A stretch of 63,813 nt of DNA, counting the filler, from Methanobacteriota archaeon (GTDB lineage Archaea; JACRDV01): assembly GCA_024860865.1 (NCBI GenBank). It is 4 parts of 4 records of this genome, joined end to end, with 100 filler letters (N's around TTAATTAATTAA, not from the genome) between each part and the next. Parts side by side here need not be neighbours in the genome. Positions count along the whole stretch, not along the records: positions 5,645 to 31,578 come from JACRDV010000030.1; 3 more parts are not named here. One strand, given 5' to 3'. A program made the position numbers and the translations under genes. The notes beneath the pieces were generated by a model. The model had not been told where the DNA came from, did not search any database, and was given only the letters and a program-made list of their open reading frames with translations. Below, piece by piece: positions 2,946-61,461 of the stretch (position 1 is its first letter; the number at the start of each line of letters is the position of its first letter).

Positions 2946-4031
2946 ATGGTTAGAAAAATCCAGAAAACTGAAGCAGAATCTCTTTTAGTAGGGGAAATGC
3001 CAGAAGGTTGTCAACTTTGCATAAAAGGCGCTAAGCTTGTTCTTTTTGTGACTGGATTATGCAGTCGATACTGCTATTTTTGCCCCATATCCGAAAAAAG
3101 AAAAGATAAGGACGTAACTTATGCTAATGAACGGTTAGTAAAAAAAGATGAAGATATAATTGAAGAAGCTAAGCTAATGGAAGCAGAAGGAACAGGGATT
3201 ACTGGGGGTGAGCCTTTAGCCCAATTTGAGAGAACTCTCTATTACATCAAATTATTGAAAAAAGAGTTCGGAGATAAACATCACATTCACTTATACACTA
3301 ATGGTGATTTGCTAACAGAAGCGAAACTTGAAAAATTGGTTTCAGCCGGACTTGATGAGATTAGATTACATCCAGTAAGCGGTGATTTTTCAATAATTGA
3401 GCAGGTAATCAAATCAAAGATTGATGTAGGTTGTGAGATTCCTGTAATTCCAAACAACAAAACAGGGATCATTAAACTTGCTGAGTTTCTTGAAAATTGC
3501 GGTGCAAAATTTCTTAATTTAAATGAATTAGAATTCTCTCCAACTAATGCAGAAGCTCTCCTGCAACGAGGACTTAGTCTTAGAAATGAAATTTCAACAG
3601 GGGTTAAAGGATCAGAAGAACTTGCTAAAGAAATTCTTGAGTGGGCAAGCGACCATACAAGAAGATTAAGTTTACACTACTGCCCTGCTCGACTCAAAAT
3701 GGTTTTTCAATTTAAGAACCGTTTGCTAAGGAGAGCTAAGCATGTTGCCAAACCATATGAGGAAATCTCTGATGAAGGGCTGCTAATTAAGGGTATAATT
3801 TTTTCAGAGGGTTTATCCGCTGAGCAACTGCATCGGCTAAGAAATGATCTAATCGAGGAGTTAGGAATACCAAGCGAGTTAATCGCTGTGGATGAAGAGA
3901 AAATGAGGCTAGAAACAGCTTGGCACTTCATCGATGAAATTGCCCGCAAAAAAAAGTCTGGTCTAAGATTGGCTGTAGTTAAAGAGTACCCAACAGCTGA
4001 TCGGCTTGAAATCGAAGTAATCCCGCTTTAA
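2946..4031 (+). CDS. Radical SAM protein (archaeal COG2108-like)
   Basis: GCQLCIKGAKLVLFVTGLCSRYCYFCP (CxxxCxxC), GITGGEP. Start moved to ATG 2946 because the longer ORF overlaps the sRNA. Confidence 0.88.
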   Translation: MVRKIQKTEAESLLVGEMPEGCQLCIKGAKLVLFVTGLCSRYCYFCPISEKRKDKDVTYANERLVKKDEDIIEEAKLMEAEGTGITGGEPLAQFERTLYYIKLLKKEFGDKHHIHLYTNGDLLTEAKLEKLVSAGLDEIRLHPVSGDFSIIEQVIKSKIDVGCEIPVIPNNKTGIIKLAEFLENCGAKFLNLNELEFSPTNAEALLQRGLSLRNEISTGVKGSEELAKEILEWASDHTRRLSLHYCPARLKMVFQFKNRLLRRAKHVAKPYEEISDEGLLIKGIIFSEGLSAEQLHRLRNDLIEELGIPSELIAVDEEKMRLETAWHFIDEIARKKKSGLRLAVVKEYPTADRLEIEVIPL

Positions 4032-5644: not shown

Positions 5645-6229
5645 ATACTCTCCTCTTCTATCGAATATCACAAGATGCAGTGCCGGGTCTAACTCTTTTT
5701 TTGCCGCTGCTGCTAAAGAAAGCAAAAATGTGGATTTGCCGGACCTTGTTTGGCCACAAATAAAGCAGTGTCCTTTTACAAGACCATTTACATCAATAGA
5801 AATTGGAATTTTTAAATTCCTTAAGTTTCCAATTTTAAGGTAGTATCCATCTTTTGTTGGAGTAATGAATTTCTCTAAGTCTTTTTCTTCAGCCTCATAA
5901 ACAGGAGTCCAAGTGGAAGGCGGGACTTCTAATGGCCTAAACTTGTTTCCTTCAAAATATCCCAAAGGTTCAGCTGAAGCAACTAAAATTTCCTGGTCAG
6001 AAGAAGGCAACTTTAACCCTTTCTTTGCATATCTGGGGCCATACCGAGTGATATCCATCTCAGGATTCTTGTAATTGATTCCAACTGCGCGTGTTAATAC
6101 TTCAACTCCTTTTGTTGGATGCTTAACGATGTAATAATTTCCAAATTCAACATGTTTTTCCTCTAATACTACAAATGAAAAGCTATCATGTGCGGAATTA
6201 TCAAGTACCCAACCGACTATTTCTTTCAT
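5645..6229 (-). CDS. HerA-like ATPase/helicase, N-terminal part (HAS barrel + Walker A), truncated by contig end
   Basis: N-terminal barrel, GHCFICGQTRSGKS, LVIFDRRGEY; directly downstream of a NurA-like gene. Confidence 0.85.
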
Positions 6230-13041: not shown

Positions 13042-14358
13042 ATGTTTGACTCTCTCGGTGATTGGAGAAGGACCCATTATTCGACCCAAATTAAGCCCAG
13101 TATGGACGGTCAAGAGGTAGTTCTTATGGGTTGGATCCATGACTTGCGTGACTTAGGCGGCGTTAGATTCGTAATTTTGCGCGATAGTGAGGGCTTCATT
13201 CAATCAACCCTTCATAAAGAGAAATCAGATCCAACTCTCTATGATAAAATAGGCTCTCTTAAGAAAGAATATGTTGTTGCGATAAAAGGAGTTATTAAAG
13301 CAATTAGACAGGCCCCAAGAGGAGTCGAAGTAATCCCCAAAGAAATTAGAATTTTAAACACAGCCGATGCAGTTTTGCCATTGGATGTAACAGGAAGAAC
13401 TGATGCTGATTTAGATACTAGGTTGAATGTTAGAGTTCTGGATTTAAGGAGACCAAAGTCATTTGCAATTTTTAAAATAAGAAATGTTGCTCTATCTTCA
13501 GCTCGAGAATTTTTAGTAAAAGAAAATTTCTTTGAAGTAAACACGCCAAAAATTATTGCTTCCGCAACAGAAGGCGGAACTGAACTTTTTCCAATAAGTT
13601 ATTTTGAAAAAGAAGCTTTTTTGAGTCAGAGCCCACAATTGTATAAAGAACAGCTTACAACAGTCTTTGATAAAGTTTATGAAATTGGACCATATTTTAG
13701 AGCCCAAGAATCAAACACAACTAGACATTTAAGTGAAACAATTGCAATCGATATTGAGCAGGCTTTTGCCACTCAAGAAGATGTTATGCAAGTTTTGGAG
13801 AGATTAGTTGAGTTTATCTTTAAGCAAGTGAATGAAAAATGTCAAGAAGAACTGAAAATACTTGAGCGCAAACTCGAAGTTCCTGAGGTTCCATTTGAAA
13901 GGTTATCTTATGATAAAATTATAGAGACGTTGAACAAACATGGTATCCCTATTAAATGGGGAGAGGATATTCCAACTCCTGCAGAGCGTAAGCTTGGCGA
14001 GCTTTACAATGAGTTTTTCTATATAATTGATTGGCCTACCAAAATAAAGCCTTTTTATATAATGCCAAAAGAAGATGACCCAAAGCATTGCTATTCTTTT
14101 GATTTGATGTATGGTGGGTTGGAGTTAGCATCGGGCGGAACACGCGTTCACGAATATGAACTTTTAGTCAAACGCCTACGTGAACAAGGCCTTAGGCCTG
14201 AGAGCTTTCAATATCATTTGAATGTCTTTAAGTGGGGAGTTCCACCACATGGGGGTGGGGGATTAGGGGCAGATAGGCTAGTTATGGTCTTAACTGGAGC
14301 AGCAAACATAAGGGAAGTCGTATATTATCCAAGGGATAGATTCCGGTTAACTCCATGA
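13042..14358 (+). CDS. aspS: Aspartyl-tRNA synthetase, archaeal, probably non-discriminating (tRNA-Asp/Asn)
   Basis: LSQSPQLYK, FRAQES, PPHGGGGLG. GWIH (His) and QAPRG (Pro) in the anticodon domain are the ND-type residues. Confidence 0.95.
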   Translation: MFDSLGDWRRTHYSTQIKPSMDGQEVVLMGWIHDLRDLGGVRFVILRDSEGFIQSTLHKEKSDPTLYDKIGSLKKEYVVAIKGVIKAIRQAPRGVEVIPKEIRILNTADAVLPLDVTGRTDADLDTRLNVRVLDLRRPKSFAIFKIRNVALSSAREFLVKENFFEVNTPKIIASATEGGTELFPISYFEKEAFLSQSPQLYKEQLTTVFDKVYEIGPYFRAQESNTTRHLSETIAIDIEQAFATQEDVMQVLERLVEFIFKQVNEKCQEELKILERKLEVPEVPFERLSYDKIIETLNKHGIPIKWGEDIPTPAERKLGELYNEFFYIIDWPTKIKPFYIMPKEDDPKHCYSFDLMYGGLELASGGTRVHEYELLVKRLREQGLRPESFQYHLNVFKWGVPPHGGGGLGADRLVMVLTGAANIREVVYYPRDRFRLTP

Positions 14359-14468
14359 CTCTCACAAAATTTTTAAAAATCTCTTAAATACAATTGTTGT
14401 TGTTCTTTAGGCGACATCGCCAAAAGTATTTATTGTTACGAAGTGATGTTGGAAGGGATGATATAAAC

Positions 14469-15650
14469 ATGAGTCTAATGGGTGAATACATTAACAGAAA
14501 ATTGAGCGTCCCTGAATTGGAATCTGAATTATTGAGATTAATATCGGAATACAACAAATTGAGAGACACATATTTATTTGTATATGCCGCTGCGATTGGA
14601 AAACCAATCCCAACTATTCCATTAGAGCAAGCGGACTTTTATGTAATTCGAGATTTGTTAGCAGGCAAAAAAGGCCTTCAGAAAGTTGATGTGTATATCG
14701 AGACACCGGGAGGAAGCGGCGAAACAGCAGAAGAGATCGTTAGGTTCTTACGCAATAATTTTGATACGATTTCCTTTGTAGTGTCTGGAGAGGCTAAAAG
14801 CGCAGGCACAATTATTGTTTTATCAGGCGATGAAATCTTAATGACTGAAACTGGAAGCTTGGGTCCGATTGACGCTCAAATAAAAATTGGACGCTCGGTA
14901 GTATCAGCATATGACTACATCGAGTGGGTTGAAAAGAAAAGGAAAGAAGCAGAAACGCAAGGTGCGCTTAACCCGTTTGATGCTACAATGGTAGCACAGG
15001 TTACACCTGGCGAATTAGGCAGTGTATTTCATGCACTAAAATTTGCTGAAGATCTAGTGGTTGAATGGTTGATAAAATACAAATTTAAAAAATGGACTGT
15101 TACCAAAACCCGCAAAATACCTGTAACTGAAGAAATGAAAAAGAAACGAGCAGAGGAGATTGCGAAGGAATTAACAGACCATTCTAAATGGAGATTACAT
15201 GGAAGATCAATAAAAATTGATGATTTAGAAGAAATTGGGTTAAAGATAACAAGGGTAGATAATGACCCGAAATTGGCTGAAATTGTATATAGAATTCAAA
15301 CAGTTTGCAGGCTGCTTTTTGAGTCTACTACCACCTTTAAGATATTTGCAACTCAAGATAACAAAATATTTAGATATGCTGTTCCTGTTGAGGCTCTCAT
15401 AAGAACTCCAAAAATGCAAACACCTGATGTAGTTGTGATTGAACAAAAATGCCTAAAATGTAATACGGTTCATAAGATATATGCAAAATTTGCTCCTAAC
15501 CCCCAGATCGATATAGACTTCAAAAGTAAAGGATTTATACCTTTTCCAAAAGATGCTAAGATTGTATGCAAATGTGGCTTTGAGATAGACTTATTAGGTA
15601 TTAAGAACCAAATTGAAATGCAAATAGGAAGAAAAGTCATTATTCAATAG
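14469..15650 (+). CDS. ClpP/S49-like serine peptidase (SDH_sah type) with C-terminal Cys-rich (Zn-ribbon-like) tail
   Basis: ETPGGSG, AKSAGT, LGPIDAQ, HGR; tail CLKC...CKCG. Start set to ATG 14469, inside the cassette. Confidence 0.85.
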   Translation: MSLMGEYINRKLSVPELESELLRLISEYNKLRDTYLFVYAAAIGKPIPTIPLEQADFYVIRDLLAGKKGLQKVDVYIETPGGSGETAEEIVRFLRNNFDTISFVVSGEAKSAGTIIVLSGDEILMTETGSLGPIDAQIKIGRSVVSAYDYIEWVEKKRKEAETQGALNPFDATMVAQVTPGELGSVFHALKFAEDLVVEWLIKYKFKKWTVTKTRKIPVTEEMKKKRAEEIAKELTDHSKWRLHGRSIKIDDLEEIGLKITRVDNDPKLAEIVYRIQTVCRLLFESTTTFKIFATQDNKIFRYAVPVEALIRTPKMQTPDVVVIEQKCLKCNTVHKIYAKFAPNPQIDIDFKSKGFIPFPKDAKIVCKCGFEIDLLGIKNQIEMQIGRKVIIQ

Positions 15651-15662
15651 GGAGAAAAAATC

Positions 15663-15839
15663 ATGGAGGTAAAGAGGAAAGAATTAAGACGGGAAGAAGA
15701 GAAGGTGTTGTTAACCTTTTTAAAACAAACCCGAGAAGGAAAGTATGCAAAAATAGATGAAAGTTCACTCCCGTATTCTAGACTTAAAGAACATAGAGAA
15801 GGACCTTATTATGAAGAGTACTACTATAGTGTTAGATAG
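15663..15839 (+). CDS. 58-aa hypothetical protein, second cassette gene
   Basis: GGGAGA RBS, then MEVKRKELRREEEKVLLTFLKQTREGKYAKIDESSLPYSRLKEHREGPYYEEYYYSVR*; stops just before attC. Confidence 0.65.
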   Translation: MEVKRKELRREEEKVLLTFLKQTREGKYAKIDESSLPYSRLKEHREGPYYEEYYYSVR

Positions 15840-15866
15840 AATAAGCAGGTAGTAGGTTGCAACATC

Positions 15867-15948
15867 GCCTAACACAGCATAAAAGGTTCGCTTTCACTCG
15901 CCCAAATTTTTGTTCGCAAAAACTTCTTTTATGCTGGGACCGTTGTGC
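15867..15948 (+). other. attC recombination site
   Basis: R'' GCCTAAC, arms CAGCATAAAAG (15875-15885) / CTTTTATGCTG (15926-15936), inner hairpin TTTTTG-TTCG-CAAAAA, R' GTTGTGC. Confidence 0.8.
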
Positions 15949-16380
15949 GAAATTGTAGCTCCGAAACGCCTTTCTAAATCGGACAAAGCGGACGGATAAA
16001 TCAAAAGAAATCGTTACGGAGCCGAAACCAAAGCTTAGAAGCATGAGAAAGCCGAGCAATCTACCTTTAAAAACTTGTTTTTACGTAATGACTTTTAAAA
16101 CGAAAAAAACCACGCCAAAATACTTGAATTATTTTCTTGCGAATTTCTTACGAATTTTATCTTTAAATTTAAAAATCCTTAGTTATGAGCGATTTAAAAT
16201 TAGATTTCCTAAACTTTATGAATTTAGATTAAGAAAATCTACCTAAAAATGAACTATGTTTACAACCGCAATCTCAATATAAGAGCGTTAAAAAAGTTTA
16301 TAACGAAGTTTTAAACATCTGACTTCTGTCTGACTCAAATTCTTATTATTTGAAGTTATTAGATTTTAACGGGTCAGTTT

Positions 16381-19300
16381 ATGGCTTATATTAAAGAAAT
16401 TACTTTGCATAATTTCAAATCATTTGGAAAACGCGTTGTAGTATCTCTCCCCAAGGGTTTTACTGCAGTCGTCGGCGCAAATGGGAGTGGGAAATCAAAT
16501 ATCATCGACGGCATTTGCTTCGTTTTAGGCCGCAGAAGCTCAAAATCAATGAGAGCTGACCGTTTAGTTGACTTAATTTTTAACGGAAGCAATGGTAGGC
16601 CTCCAGCTGACTTTACTGAAGTTAGCTTGATTTTTGATAATACCGATTCAGCTTTCCCAATTGACTCAAGCAATGTCACAGTTTCTAGAAAAGTCAACAG
16701 AGCTGGCTACTGCGCCTATAGAATTAACGATCGCATGGCAACTAGAACTGAAATTATTGAATTATTGAGCCATGCTGCAATCAATCCAGATGGCTATAAC
16801 ATAATCATGCAAGGGGATATTGTCAAAATAGTCGAAATGAATGCCGCTGATAGGAGAAAAATAATAGATGAAGTCTCAGGAATCGCCGAGTACAATGAAA
16901 AGAAAGAAAAAGCAATGCATGAGCTTGAAAAAGTCAAAAACAACATTGATAAAATTAACATAGTTATATCAGAAGTTGAAACACAATTATCGAAATTAAA
17001 AAGTGAACGCGAAGATGCATTAAATTATAAAGAATTGCAAACAAAACTCGAAGAAACTCGTGGCTTATTAATCAATAAAAAACTTTCAGATGCTAAAGCT
17101 GCTTTAAATAATTTACTAGATACATTGGGTACAACTGAAGCTGACTATCAGAAGTTCAATCAAGAACTTCAAGCACTTGTTTCAAGTTCACAAGAGAGCG
17201 AGCAGAAATTAAATCAGTTGAATCAGATTATTGCAGAAAAAACTGAGAAAGAACAATTATCCCTTCAAAAAGAAATTGAAGAAATAAAAGGAACAATCCA
17301 TAGAGCTCAAGATTCTATTAAACTTGCACAAGAAGAAATTGAGAGAACATCGAATGAAAAGAGAGAAACTGAATTAAAACTTCAACGATTTGAAGCTGAA
17401 ATTTCTGAACTTCAAAAGAATATTGCTCAATTAGAATATCAAAGGTCAGAAGTAATAGCTCAAATTGGAAATAGAAGCAAGGAATTAAGAGATATTTTAG
17501 AAGCGGTCAAAGAGATAGACTCTGAATTTGCAAAATTAAATGATGAGTTATCCGGAATTAATGTTCAACTTGAACAAAAAAAGGACAAATTTTTTGCAGT
17601 TCAGAGAGAGATGGAAAAATTACGAGAACTTCTTCAATCAAAGCAGACAGAGAAAAGCAATGTTTCATCTAAGCTTGAGCAATTAAAAACTCAATTGGTT
17701 GGTTTAGAAGCCAATTATGCTGAAGCTATTGAAAAACAAACACAGCTTCAAAATCAGAAGTCGAGACTAGAGATTGATCTAACTAAACTCACAAAACAAG
17801 AAGAACTCGAGCTGCGCGAAAAGATTACAGTAATTGAAGAAAAGTTACGAAAAGCTCAAGAAGACTATGCTCGTGTAGAAACTAAACTAAAAACTTTAGA
17901 AGAGATTTCTTACCCAAAGGCTATTAGTGAAATACTGAAAGCTAGAGATATAGGCCTCTTAACAGGGATTTACGGAACAATTGCAGAATTGCTTAAAGTC
18001 AAACCTGAACATGAAGTTGCGATTGAGGTGGCAGCCGGTTCGCGGCTGCACCATATTGTTGTTGAATCAGATGAAGATGCATCTCAGGCAATTAAATTTT
18101 TAAAAGAAAATAAAATTGGTCGAGCTACATTTTTGCCCCTCAATAAAATTGAATTTAAAACTCTAGATCCTCGATCTATAGATGCTAGCAAGGCTGAAGG
18201 AGCAATTGGTTTAGCAATAAATTTAGTAGACTTTGACCCGAAATTTCAATTTGCATTTAATTATGTTTTTGGGGATACAGTCGTTGTTGATAATTTAGAA
18301 ACAGCAAAAAAACTTGCGAACGGTCTTAGAATTGTGACGCTTGATGGCGATCTGATAGATGCAAAGTGGGCAATTACAGGCGGCTTTTATCAAAGGAGAG
18401 GTATCAAATCCGTTAAGCAAGAAGAAGATTATCTTCAACAATTAAAAGCTGGAATTTCACAGCTTGAAACTTCTAAGCAGGAAATTTTAGTTAAGCTCAA
18501 AGAGCTCGAAAAATTTGTAGGAGAATTATCACAACAAAAAATCAATGTTGAAGCTGAATTAACAAATCAAACTTTAATCTTAGATAATGCACAAAAACAA
18601 ATTCAAAACCAAAAAAATGAGTTAATTCAATTTGAGGCTCAATTTGCCCAATTATCAAAAGAAATTGAATCATTTGAAGTTAAGTATAATTTACATTCAG
18701 CTGAATTAAATCAGCTCCAAGATGAGCTAAAACAACTTGAAAGTAAAAAAATTGAGATCAATGAGAAACTTAGCTCTTCTAAAGCTAGTGATTATACAGC
18801 AAAAACAAGAGAAATTGAGCAAACAATTTATCAACACCGCGAAACTCAGCAAAAACTTGATACAGAGATCGGCTCTTCAAAAGCAAAAATTGAGAGCGGG
18901 TTGCAGCCTTCTATTCAAACATGTAAGAATAATTTGGCAAACCACCAAGAAAAAAGTGAAAAATTAGTGAATATGGTTCAACAAAATCAAGCTTTAATTT
19001 TACTTCAGACCCAACAGCTCAATTTAAAAGTTGATCTTGTAGGCAGTTTAACCAAAGACGTTGAAGGATTACGCATACAACGCGAGCAGTATCAACGAAC
19101 GATTTCTGAGCTTTCAGTTAAGCGCGAGGAACTCTACCAGAAGCTTGCTAGTATTCAGACGGTCCGTTCAAATCTGAACGCTGAAAAAATGGCGCTTGAA
19201 AGCAAGATAAATGAGCTATCTATTGAAGCTCAAAAATATCAAAATTTAGCCGCCTCAGAAGTTGAAGTAAAAATATCTGATCTAGAACAAAAGGTACAAA

Positions 19301-19920
19301 CTCTTGAAATCGAAATGAAAAAGCTTGAACCAATAAACATGCGCGCAATTGAAGACTATGATAATACTTTACAACGCCATGAAAAACTTTTTGAACAAAA
19401 TAAAAAGCTAACAGAAGAAAGAAATGCCATACTTAAATTAATGACTGAAATAGATGAACGAAAATTAGCAGTTTTTATGGAGGCTTTTGAGGCAATTAAC
19501 CGAAGTTTTAAAGAGATTTTTTCACAGCTCTCACCTGAAGGCGAAGCGGAGTTAATACTTGAAAACTATGGCGATCCCTTTGAAGGTGGCTTAGAAATTC
19601 GGGCAAAACCAGCAGGAAAAGAAGTTCGCTCGATTGAATCAATGTCGGGAGGCGAGAAAACGCTCACAGCACTGGCTTTTGTCTTTGGGTTAGCTCGCTA
19701 TAAACCGGCACCATTCTATGTGCTAGATGAAGCAGATATGTTTCTAGATGGCGATAATGGTGAAAAATTTGCCAATCTAGTGAAAGAATTTTCTAAAAGC
19801 GCTCAATTTATAGTGGTATCTTTTAGAGAAAGCATGGTATCTTCTGCTGATCAGTTAATTGGTGTTGCTATGCAGGATGCTGGCTCAGATATAGTTTCAG
19901 TCAAACTAGGAGGCCAGTAA
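16381..19920 (+). CDS. smc: Chromosome segregation protein SMC
   Basis: NFKSF, GANGSGKSN, hinge GRATFLPL, MSGGEK, LDEAD, long coiled coils. Confidence 0.97.
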   Translation: MAYIKEITLHNFKSFGKRVVVSLPKGFTAVVGANGSGKSNIIDGICFVLGRRSSKSMRADRLVDLIFNGSNGRPPADFTEVSLIFDNTDSAFPIDSSNVTVSRKVNRAGYCAYRINDRMATRTEIIELLSHAAINPDGYNIIMQGDIVKIVEMNAADRRKIIDEVSGIAEYNEKKEKAMHELEKVKNNIDKINIVISEVETQLSKLKSEREDALNYKELQTKLEETRGLLINKKLSDAKAALNNLLDTLGTTEADYQKFNQELQALVSSSQESEQKLNQLNQIIAEKTEKEQLSLQKEIEEIKGTIHRAQDSIKLAQEEIERTSNEKRETELKLQRFEAEISELQKNIAQLEYQRSEVIAQIGNRSKELRDILEAVKEIDSEFAKLNDELSGINVQLEQKKDKFFAVQREMEKLRELLQSKQTEKSNVSSKLEQLKTQLVGLEANYAEAIEKQTQLQNQKSRLEIDLTKLTKQEELELREKITVIEEKLRKAQEDYARVETKLKTLEEISYPKAISEILKARDIGLLTGIYGTIAELLKVKPEHEVAIEVAAGSRLHHIVVESDEDASQAIKFLKENKIGRATFLPLNKIEFKTLDPRSIDASKAEGAIGLAINLVDFDPKFQFAFNYVFGDTVVVDNLETAKKLANGLRIVTLDGDLIDAKWAITGGFYQRRGIKSVKQEEDYLQQLKAGISQLETSKQEILVKLKELEKFVGELSQQKINVEAELTNQTLILDNAQKQIQNQKNELIQFEAQFAQLSKEIESFEVKYNLHSAELNQLQDELKQLESKKIEINEKLSSSKASDYTAKTREIEQTIYQHRETQQKLDTEIGSSKAKIESGLQPSIQTCKNNLANHQEKSEKLVNMVQQNQALILLQTQQLNLKVDLVGSLTKDVEGLRIQREQYQRTISELSVKREELYQKLASIQTVRSNLNAEKMALESKINELSIEAQKYQNLAASEVEVKISDLEQKVQTLEIEMKKLEPINMRAIEDYDNTLQRHEKLFEQNKKLTEERNAILKLMTEIDERKLAVFMEAFEAINRSFKEIFSQLSPEGEAELILENYGDPFEGGLEIRAKPAGKEVRSIESMSGGEKTLTALAFVFGLARYKPAPFYVLDEADMFLDGDNGEKFANLVKEFSKSAQFIVVSFRESMVSSADQLIGVAMQDAGSDIVSVKLGGQ

Positions 19921-60141: not shown

Positions 60142-60241
60142 NNNNNNNNNNNNNNNNNNNNNNNNNNNNNNNNNNNNNNNNNNNNTTAATTAATTAANNN
60201 NNNNNNNNNNNNNNNNNNNNNNNNNNNNNNNNNNNNNNNNN
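60142..60241. other. Artificial contig linker
   Basis: 44 N + TTAATTAATTAA + 44 N. Confidence 0.98.
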
Positions 60242-60349: not shown

Positions 60350-60437
60350 CATAACAAAACTGAGGAAAGCCATGCAAATTGCTCAGTGTTATTTTCGGTT
60401 CTTGCATGGAGGTATTGAAGAGCACATTTTGAATCTA
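60350..60437 (+). repeat. 88-bp direct repeat, copy 1 (RBS + first 22 codons of the glycosyltransferase)
   Basis: Identical to 61374-61461. Confidence 0.95.
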
Positions 60438-61373: not shown

Positions 61374-61461
61374 CATAACAAAACTGAGGAAAGCCATGCA
61401 AATTGCTCAGTGTTATTTTCGGTTCTTGCATGGAGGTATTGAAGAGCACATTTTGAATCTA
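61374..61461 (+). repeat. 88-bp direct repeat, copy 2
   Basis: Identical to 60350-60437. Confidence 0.95.

Follow-up and report, generated by a model that had tools for sequence, protein, structure and literature searches.

Between the genes aspS (13042-14358) and smc (16381-19920) of the DNA under study, a 63.8-kb stretch that we call the window and along whose whole length coordinates are counted, lies a compact unit of two genes and a hairpin. The order from left to right is aspS, a peptidase gene, an open reading frame (ORF) of 58 amino acids (aa), the hairpin and smc, all on the plus strand. An earlier note on this DNA had read the unit as a mobile gene cassette that ends in a folded attC-type site and stands alone between aspS and smc in an archaeal chromosome, and the gene content is as it claimed. 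The unit spans 14407-15942 and is made up of a protease of the SDH/ClpP fold, its 58-aa partner and an 82-nt hairpin site. Our analysis shows it to be a real solitary integron-type cassette in an archaeal chromosome; its site belongs to a cross-domain family, and the integrases that adjoin this family in other genomes are not classical integron integrases (IntI).

The chromosome is archaeal, as was claimed: a profile search of the window proteins gave a class-I lysyl-tRNA synthetase (lysS_arch, 599 bits), an archaeal host marker, together with a rad3-type helicase and ScpA, and the named matches of aspS come from Bathyarchaeia or Bathyarchaeota only, at 57-61% protein identity.

Copies of the cassette and its borders

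The protease of the cassette has more than 100 database relatives at 75-89% identity, the named ones from Brocadiales, Smithella and Pseudomonadota, whereas aspS does not exceed 64% among all its database relatives and found zero relatives when searched against the genome contigs. With so many close relatives, some of them named bacterial ones, the peptidase is not a conserved vertical neighbour of aspS, an explanation that the earlier note had set against a cassette. The protease was found in six species-representative genomes (Planctomycetota, two Desulfobacteraceae, a Methanocellales archaeon, Eubacteriales and a deltaproteobacterium) as well as in 57 metagenome contigs. DNA alignments of the window to these copies run at 79-87% identity from about 14453 to 15839-15955, and the aligned loci span four named phyla, bacterial and archaeal, with Desulfobacteraceae, Planctomycetota, Bacillota and Methanocellales genomes in addition to metagenome contigs.

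The points at which the homology ends and starts in other loci define the exchange borders of the unit, and they are those that had been proposed from the window alone. The homology runs no further than the G|TT of the hairpin in 11 of the 63 loci (alignments reaching 15939-15955), and the DNA beyond is unrelated and different in each. Junctions of the G|TTAGGC type mark the start of the cassette in 13 loci (L002, L003, L019, L021, L023, L024, L027, L028, L030, L031, L032, L065 and L066), and in L002, L019, L021, L024, L032, L027/28 and L065/66 another hairpin site lies directly before this start junction. In the window itself the 5' end of the cassette (14407-14426, plus strand) starts with TTAGGCGAC, which in the circular form makes up the right half of the core (R') site. 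It is preceded by T14406, where other copies carry G, and the T that the earlier note had remarked on at this junction is thus verified.

The same note had taken as a sign of a former circle that TTAGGCGA at 14407-14414 is the complement of TCGCCTAA at 15865-15872. The two are indeed exact complements, 1458 nt (about 1.46 kb) apart, but the match in the window is no better than chance: a 15-nt version reaches 11/15 at the true site and 11-12/15 on control strands. We therefore rejected the 8-nt complement as a stand-alone proof, and the left border of the window copy rests instead on its homology to the other copies. In those copies the complementarity of the cassette start to the bases before their own R'' box reaches about 17 nt.

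Following the conserved start, the window copy has an A/T-rich leader insert of about 22 nt (14427-14448, plus strand) that is absent from all other copies; in views of their ends the conserved start runs directly into the ribosome-binding region. From its resemblance to a B recognition element (BRE) and a TATA box, the insert may be an archaeal promoter.

The copies also bear on the past of the cassette. Its G+C content is 35-37% in every host compared (the window and loci L001-L005), equal to the 36% of the window but below the 40-47% of the bacterial flanks, and the ultimate donor may be a low-GC organism. A tree of the DNA sequences joins the window copy to the one from Methanocellales as a pair, with a support of 86/93, which is below the starred threshold of the tool. 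Searches for a vector gave one partial match at 69% in the plasmid collection, zero matches to the cassette in the phage collection and one locus at 71% protein identity among viral contigs, and no vector was identified from them.

Some of the loci are worth describing in their own right. One Desulfobacteraceae array (L002), flanked by ilvC and ilvB, has an identical cassette start of about 20 nt after two different sites (3528-3550 and 5906-5925), which suggests a duplicated or re-inserted cassette. In L027 (1551-1639) the site of the protease cassette has the usual 5' half and another 3' half, as though two sites had recombined to give it; it scores 26 bits on the covariance model introduced below. 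The Methanocellales genome holds a second archaeal copy with decayed ends (L004, 6001-7373), where the protease pair lies without a hairpin site between a Lon_C-like gene and the haem synthesis genes hemC/hemL.

The hairpin site and its family

The attC-type recombination site at the right end of the cassette covers 82 nt (15867-15948, plus strand), and the GCCTAAC, the 11-nt inverted arms and the GTT from which the earlier note had recognized it are all found at the places it gave. The extended R'' box (15857-15873, plus strand) ends in GCCTAAC (15867-15873) and is complementary to the first bases of the cassette itself. The perfect arms at 15875-15885 and 15926-15936 are the sole exact copies of this sequence in the window (at one mismatch or less there are 5, with 2.7 expected) and enclose a variable loop that contains CCCAAAT. 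They are followed by a one-sided spacer of 5 nt (15937-15941) and by the GTT at 15942-15944, so that the crossover G|TT falls at 15942|15943. The classical consensus is RYYYAAC for R'' and GTTRRRY for R'. The R'' of the window, GCCTAAC, fits it; the R' in situ, GTTGTGC, departs from it by a T in place of a purine at its fifth position, and the circular form, GTTAGGC, fits.

By one account (PMC8946536), an attC site is an imperfect palindrome; in its folded bottom strand the central spacer stays unpaired, extrahelical bases occur and the terminal structure varies. Here the bottom strand folds at -19 kcal/mol (z -2.7) and has the variable loop, but the 11-bp stem is perfect, without the extrahelical bases that the earlier note had called for, and the spacer has 5 nt on one side and 1 nt on the other. 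When the ends of the cassette were joined in silico the bottom strand of the reconstituted circular junction folded at -24.0 kcal/mol, compared to -19.6 kcal/mol in situ.

We trained a covariance model, R1, on six sites taken from other cassettes, the window site being kept out. Run on the window with filters off, R1 gave one match, at 15867-15948 on the plus strand (55 bits, E 1e-10), and no further match at E<1, the next ones having E 1.8 or worse. Our own energy-based and stem-based scanners for AAC...GTT hairpins did not discriminate and were discarded; the stem-based one returned 66 candidates in the AT-rich window. On 418 kb of protease loci R1 detected 24 sites, all of them on the gene strand. 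There are arrays among these loci (five sites in L002, four in L024), and their cassettes abut head to tail. In the set of 24 sites 94.5% of the stem cells are paired and 9 of the 11 stem pairs vary on both sides; a further 49 sites, 40 of them archaeal, gave 91.6% paired and again 9/11 pairs varying on both sides. Not one of 500 shuffles reached the observed covariation score or the observed paired share. The alignments were fitted to the R1 model, which favours structure, but controls with slid partners were paired to only 27-47%, so that the structure is still argued for.

Sequencing reads bear on the same question. The depth over 15869-16019 rises up to 244 in run X2 and 190 in run X4 against about 8-14 in the neighbouring bins, and there are loose ends at 15870 and 15944, which indicates that the site stands behind many other genes in these communities. 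What gives the site its significance is the homology of the whole unit ending at the borders together with the R1 match and the bottom-strand fold, rather than the complementarity of the cassette ends. The homology across phyla and the R1 match bear out a mobile gene cassette that ends in a folded attC-type site, and the hairpin is a member of a recombination-site family common to archaea and bacteria.

This family is widespread. In one archaeal phylum, the one to which the Methanocellales genome belongs, R1 detects it at E<=1e-4 in 33 of the 151 genomes sampled, with a maximum of 24 sites in a genome, and among Desulfobacterota in 16 of 151; the view that such elements are uncommon in archaea is thus not supported for this archaeal phylum. 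We examined 20 archaeal regions for an upstream complement of the R'' flank, and 8 of the 36 sites matched at 13/15 or better, always directly after a G, against 0/36 in both controls. Two of these eight (L087 and L088) are solitary cassettes in one archaeal contig of 1.07 Mb, and the situation seen in the window therefore recurs.

Recombinases beside the family and the probable route of the cassette

The window was searched by tblastn with two classical IntI queries and one Xer-like query and no tyrosine recombinase was found in its 63.8 kb (best E 0.55). This agrees with the earlier note, which had no integrase in view, and with a single R1 site the cassette is solitary within the window. 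Recombinases do adjoin the family elsewhere. In L021 a recombinase gene stops about 860 nt short of an R1 site, and behind that site comes the protease cassette, with all of them in the same orientation. Its product passes the NCBIfam XerA_Arch model (241.5 against a cut-off of 220), fails the integron-integrase model TIGR02249 (232 against 265) and is shorter by about 41 residues at the position of the IntI-specific domain. The same arrangement was found in five archaeal genomes (G037, G033, G122, G011 with a frameshift and G133 with one stop), with sites 0.4-2.1 kb downstream. A Desulfobacterota genome has recombinase fragments at the corresponding position. The short integrases of L021, G037, G033, G122 and G011 share 60-77% identity with each other and 31-32% with classical IntI and are without about 41-45 aa in the region of the IntI domain; those of L021, G037, G033 and G122 score 230-243 bits on TIGR02249, below its cut-off. 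Housekeeping-grade XerA proteins (257-304 bits) are not adjacent to sites among the matches listed. By eye, the site of the first cassette beside the G011 integrase is closely similar to that of the window.

The first cassettes beside the short integrases begin at junctions of the ...G|TTATATG type. Right after the stop codon of the integrase lies an attI-like palindrome, which resembles the stems of the sites, in four of the five cases inspected (L090, L091, L107 and, in a variant form, L021), and L106 has only a short related motif before the same junction. The palindrome has arms of the GGATATACC type at L090 3600-3700, at L091 3290-3370 and in L107 (after 1770), each time followed by G|TTATATG, and judged by its sequence and place it is a candidate attI. 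A further contig of a Methanocellales metagenome-assembled genome (MAG), L076 (G004:C38, 4872-9121), looks archaeal by its RrmJ-TRAM fusion and TbsP-like gene and encodes a 430-aa XerA-like recombinase with a zinc ribbon, next SpoVG, and then at least three small cassettes, two of them PRiA4_ORF3-like, that are separated by sites of the same family (one of 58 bits, one degenerate).

Contigs L015-L018, which do carry classical IntI, have zero R1 sites, and the sites in their arrays, about 60 nt long, are of another kind. The term integron in its classical sense, as the earlier note had used it, is therefore not supported for this family: in six loci the adjoining recombinases are short XerA-like proteins without the IntI-specific domain.

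From these results we consider it quite probable that the unit at 14407-15942 is a mobile cassette belonging to an integron-type system of gene capture. In its free, circular state the cassette would present its hairpin site as a single-stranded bottom strand to a tyrosine recombinase, which would exchange strands at G|TT with a double-stranded target and so place the cassette in the spacer between aspS and smc, in the same direction as both genes. The most likely enzyme would be one of the short XerA-like integrases, the family found directly upstream of the arrays and co-oriented with them, and the gene of the acting integrase would lie elsewhere in the genome, or the enzyme would have been there only for a time. 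The cargo, a Ser-protease and small-partner gene pair under purifying selection, may be expressed by read-through from aspS or from the TATA-like leader insert that is specific to the window. One step further, the cassette could be the product of a cross-domain lineage of integron-type systems run by short XerA-like integrases without the IntI domain, in which a platform integrase is followed by an attI-like palindrome and by cassettes, all in one direction, and cassettes are scattered singly at core-like archaeal sites; this proposal might just as well prove right as wrong. A literature search at the level of listings found no published description of such a lineage and no report of solitary archaeal cassettes or of XerA-type integrases with cassette arrays.

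A number of observations weigh against an integron-type cassette of this kind. The left junction is T|TT where the right one is G|TT, so that the target consensus 5'-GWT-3' is absent on the left, where position -1 is T and not G. The stem of the site, without a single extrahelical base and with a spacer of 1 nt on the R'' side against 5 nt on the other, is unlike a textbook attC, and the window is without any recombinase. The nearest protease copies lie at synonymous distances (dS) of about 0.47-0.52, so no recent donor has been sampled. The bacterial cassette carriers G002, G003 and G005 encode classical IntI (375-446 bits, above the cut-off), one Desulfobacterota array adjoins an IntI-like C-terminal fragment that is not typable, and classical IntI may act on family sites too. 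Finally, an empty-site allele of the aspS-smc interval, as envisaged in the earlier note, was not seen in four sequencing runs, none of which held a joint that skips the cassette.

A rival reading is a classical integron cassette that came from a bacterial integron and was inserted by canonical IntI at a secondary (attG-type) site, which would make it an archaeal single attC without integron integrase (SALIN). The fit of R'' and of the circular-form R' to the classical consensus, the presence of the cassette in a five-site array of a Desulfobacteraceae chromosome and the IntI genes of the three carrier genomes are all in accordance with it, and in the accessible parts of two reports IntI is documented to insert outside att sites (10.1101/2022.09.11.507474) and IntI1 to recombine archaeal attCs (PMC9668308). 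We nevertheless regard it as unlikely. The contigs with classical IntI carry a different site, all typable recombinases adjoining the family are without the IntI domain, the archaeal sample has the family no less often than the Desulfobacterota sample does, and the left junction is without the G of the 5'-GWT-3' consensus as given in the seen part of the SALIN report (10.1101/2022.09.11.507474). Far less probable still, to the point of being nearly negligible, is that the hairpin does no more than terminate transcription, or that the insert came about as an assembly chimera or is a transposon whose ends are inverted. The hairpin does follow the last gene, the cassette ends carry inverted repeats of about 17 nt, and the window itself may have been assembled from the very sample whose run spans both junctions. 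But the hairpin recurs behind unrelated genes, as seen from the depth of up to 244 against about 14 in the flanks and from the loose ends at 15870 and 15944, and it shows compensatory changes; conservation extends 75 nt past the right inverted repeat to G|TT, there is no transposase and arrayed cassettes abut head to tail, while a contig of 1876 nt over 14350-16225 is identical throughout, with zero differences.

Whether the cassette was captured singly or is left over from a small array, or from an insertion of two cassettes, of which the second (15943 to about 16195) has decayed, is a closer matter, and we lean only slightly away from a relic. The extended R' box (15942-15955, plus strand) reads GTTGTGC and then GAAATTG, and equals the family consensus of a cassette start: in a position weight matrix of 68 sites GAAATTG is the consensus at positions 8-14 after the crossover G, and the window carries exactly this heptamer, at 9.5 bits, a score that only 0.044% of the window 7-mers equal or exceed. 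In views of their ends, sites that are not followed by another cassette are often without this consensus, and the contigs of related strains resume at 16196, about 250 nt past the cassette. On the other hand R1 found no second site in the window at E<1, and the non-coding stretch up to smc (15943-16380), which is either the former spacer with a core-like pseudo-site or what remains of a second cassette, holds no convincing ORF and is without homology to the fetched loci (blastn of 15943-16380 and of 14359-14406 against all of them gave no meaningful match). A recombinase would also prefer a chromosomal pseudo-site that resembles its core, and to the left of 14407 nothing resembles a site or an attI-like palindrome. 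In X2 and X3 few reads or none cover 14359-14509 and 16020-16170, which is uninformative. Contigs of strains related at 97-98% end at 14300 or 14379 and resume at 16196, none of them joining across. The contigs of the probable source run and of two related-strain runs all break at 14350-14379 and 16196-16236, outside the cassette borders, which hints at strain variation in the aspS-smc spacer.

An integron-type cassette that stands alone in an archaeal chromosome has likenesses in two described settings. The archaeal integrons and the attC clusters that have no integron integrase (CALINs) of Ghaly et al. 2022 (PMC9668308) are likewise cassettes with folded attCs in archaeal MAGs, with site families common with bacteria. 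In the part of that survey available to us, integrons were found in 75 of 6718 genomes with singleton attCs excluded, an archaeal marker lay on the contig of the integron for only about 7% of the integron-bearing MAGs, and one archaeal cassette had 92% nucleotide identity to a Planctomycetota cassette (PMC9668308). The archaeal IntIs described there carry the IntI-specific domain, whereas the recombinases adjoining our family are without it; our cassette is solitary, and its family occurs in 33/151 genomes of one phylum. The SALINs of Loot et al. (10.1101/2022.09.11.507474) are, as far as the available text goes, also single cassettes with an attC outside arrays and no integrase nearby, and can be expressed from a neighbouring promoter, as we propose here. 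Within the 63.8-kb window the cassette likewise has a single attC with a coding sequence and no other att site or integrase nearby. That report deals with bacteria and IntI1-3, the word "archaea" occurring 0 times in the text at hand, and its target is 5'-GWT-3' (10.1101/2022.09.11.507474), whereas here T stands at -1 and the right flank matches the 14-nt core consensus. The orientation seen in the short-integrase platforms has a parallel too. Reverse-orientation integrases of Spirochaetota retain the IntI domain. In these "reverse-orientation" integrons, as portrayed in the accessible section of the survey, the integrase is co-directional with the cassettes as in the short-integrase platforms (PMC9668308).

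A mobile cassette is thus placed beyond doubt on an archaeal chromosome, between aspS and smc, and since arrays in bacteria hold the same cassette, with 79-87% identity in DNA, it provides a concrete example of cassettes shared between the domains. The frequency of the family (33/151) and its link to short integrases suggest that archaeal integron-type capture is commoner than reported and mechanistically broader. Whether hairpin-site recombination needs the IntI-specific domain becomes testable with defined parts, namely integrase, attI-like palindrome and site. If the short-integrase lineage were real, it would constitute a routine vehicle for gene exchange between archaea and bacteria.

Cargo genes and minor features

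The first gene of the cassette (14469-15650, plus strand) encodes a serine peptidase of 393 aa with the SDH/ClpP fold and a C-terminal part that resembles a zinc ribbon with four Cys. It matches PF01972 at 50.3 bits (cut-off 31.3) and reaches only 56.8 of the 250 bits required by the NCBIfam equivalog NF047768, which places it in a divergent subfamily of the SDH/S49 ClpP-fold peptidases. Across 30 sequences the serine motif GxAKSAG (S111) and the cysteines C328, C331 and C369 do not vary, while at least 90% of the sequences keep C367, and a ratio of nonsynonymous to synonymous change (dN/dS) of about 0.14 indicates purifying selection on the gene. The predicted structure (pLDDT 85) has its best structural matches in the stomatin-specific protease 1510-N, SppA and ClpP. 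The 1510-N/NfeD protease and SppA (PDB 3viv and 4kwb; E 6.6e-5 and 2.8e-4) are likewise ClpP-fold serine peptidases, with structures that contain a bound C-terminal or substrate peptide. Identity to them is only 12-15%, however, and the C-terminal half of the cassette protein, about 170 aa with the four Cys, is additional; unlike in the case of 1510-N, the operon partner is a soluble protein of 58 aa and not a stomatin.

This partner gene (15663-15839, plus strand), whose product has a conserved aromatic C-terminus, is kept beside the protease down to 53% protease identity, and its product belongs to no family in Pfam, NCBIfam, PHROGs or PADLOC. PADLOC gave 0 families for either cargo protein, and a literature search on the protease family with anti-phage terms returned nothing relevant. 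Modelling weakly suggests that the two proteins form a complex: the predicted complex scored 0.47 against 0.00 for the best of three controls, a mark that 58 of 80 solved complexes attain and that 2 of 110 mismatched pairs attain as well, with only 7 of those 80 solved complexes, and both mismatches, at 0.60 or below. The runs agreed in at least 82% of the contacts, and the pLDDT of the partner was at least 63. By analogy with 1510-N and SppA we infer that the peptidase could bind or trim the C-terminus of its partner.

Rfam gave 0 gathering matches and ARAGORN 0 tRNAs in the window. Just past a run of N (60200-60241) lie two perfect direct repeats of 88 nt (60350-60437 and 61374-61461), 1024 nt apart, with a small RHH-like gene between them. 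Each contains a short hairpin, and these two are the sole other R1 matches in the window, both very weak (E 1.8 and 3.8). The pair of repeats may be a duplication, an att pair or an effect of the assembly.

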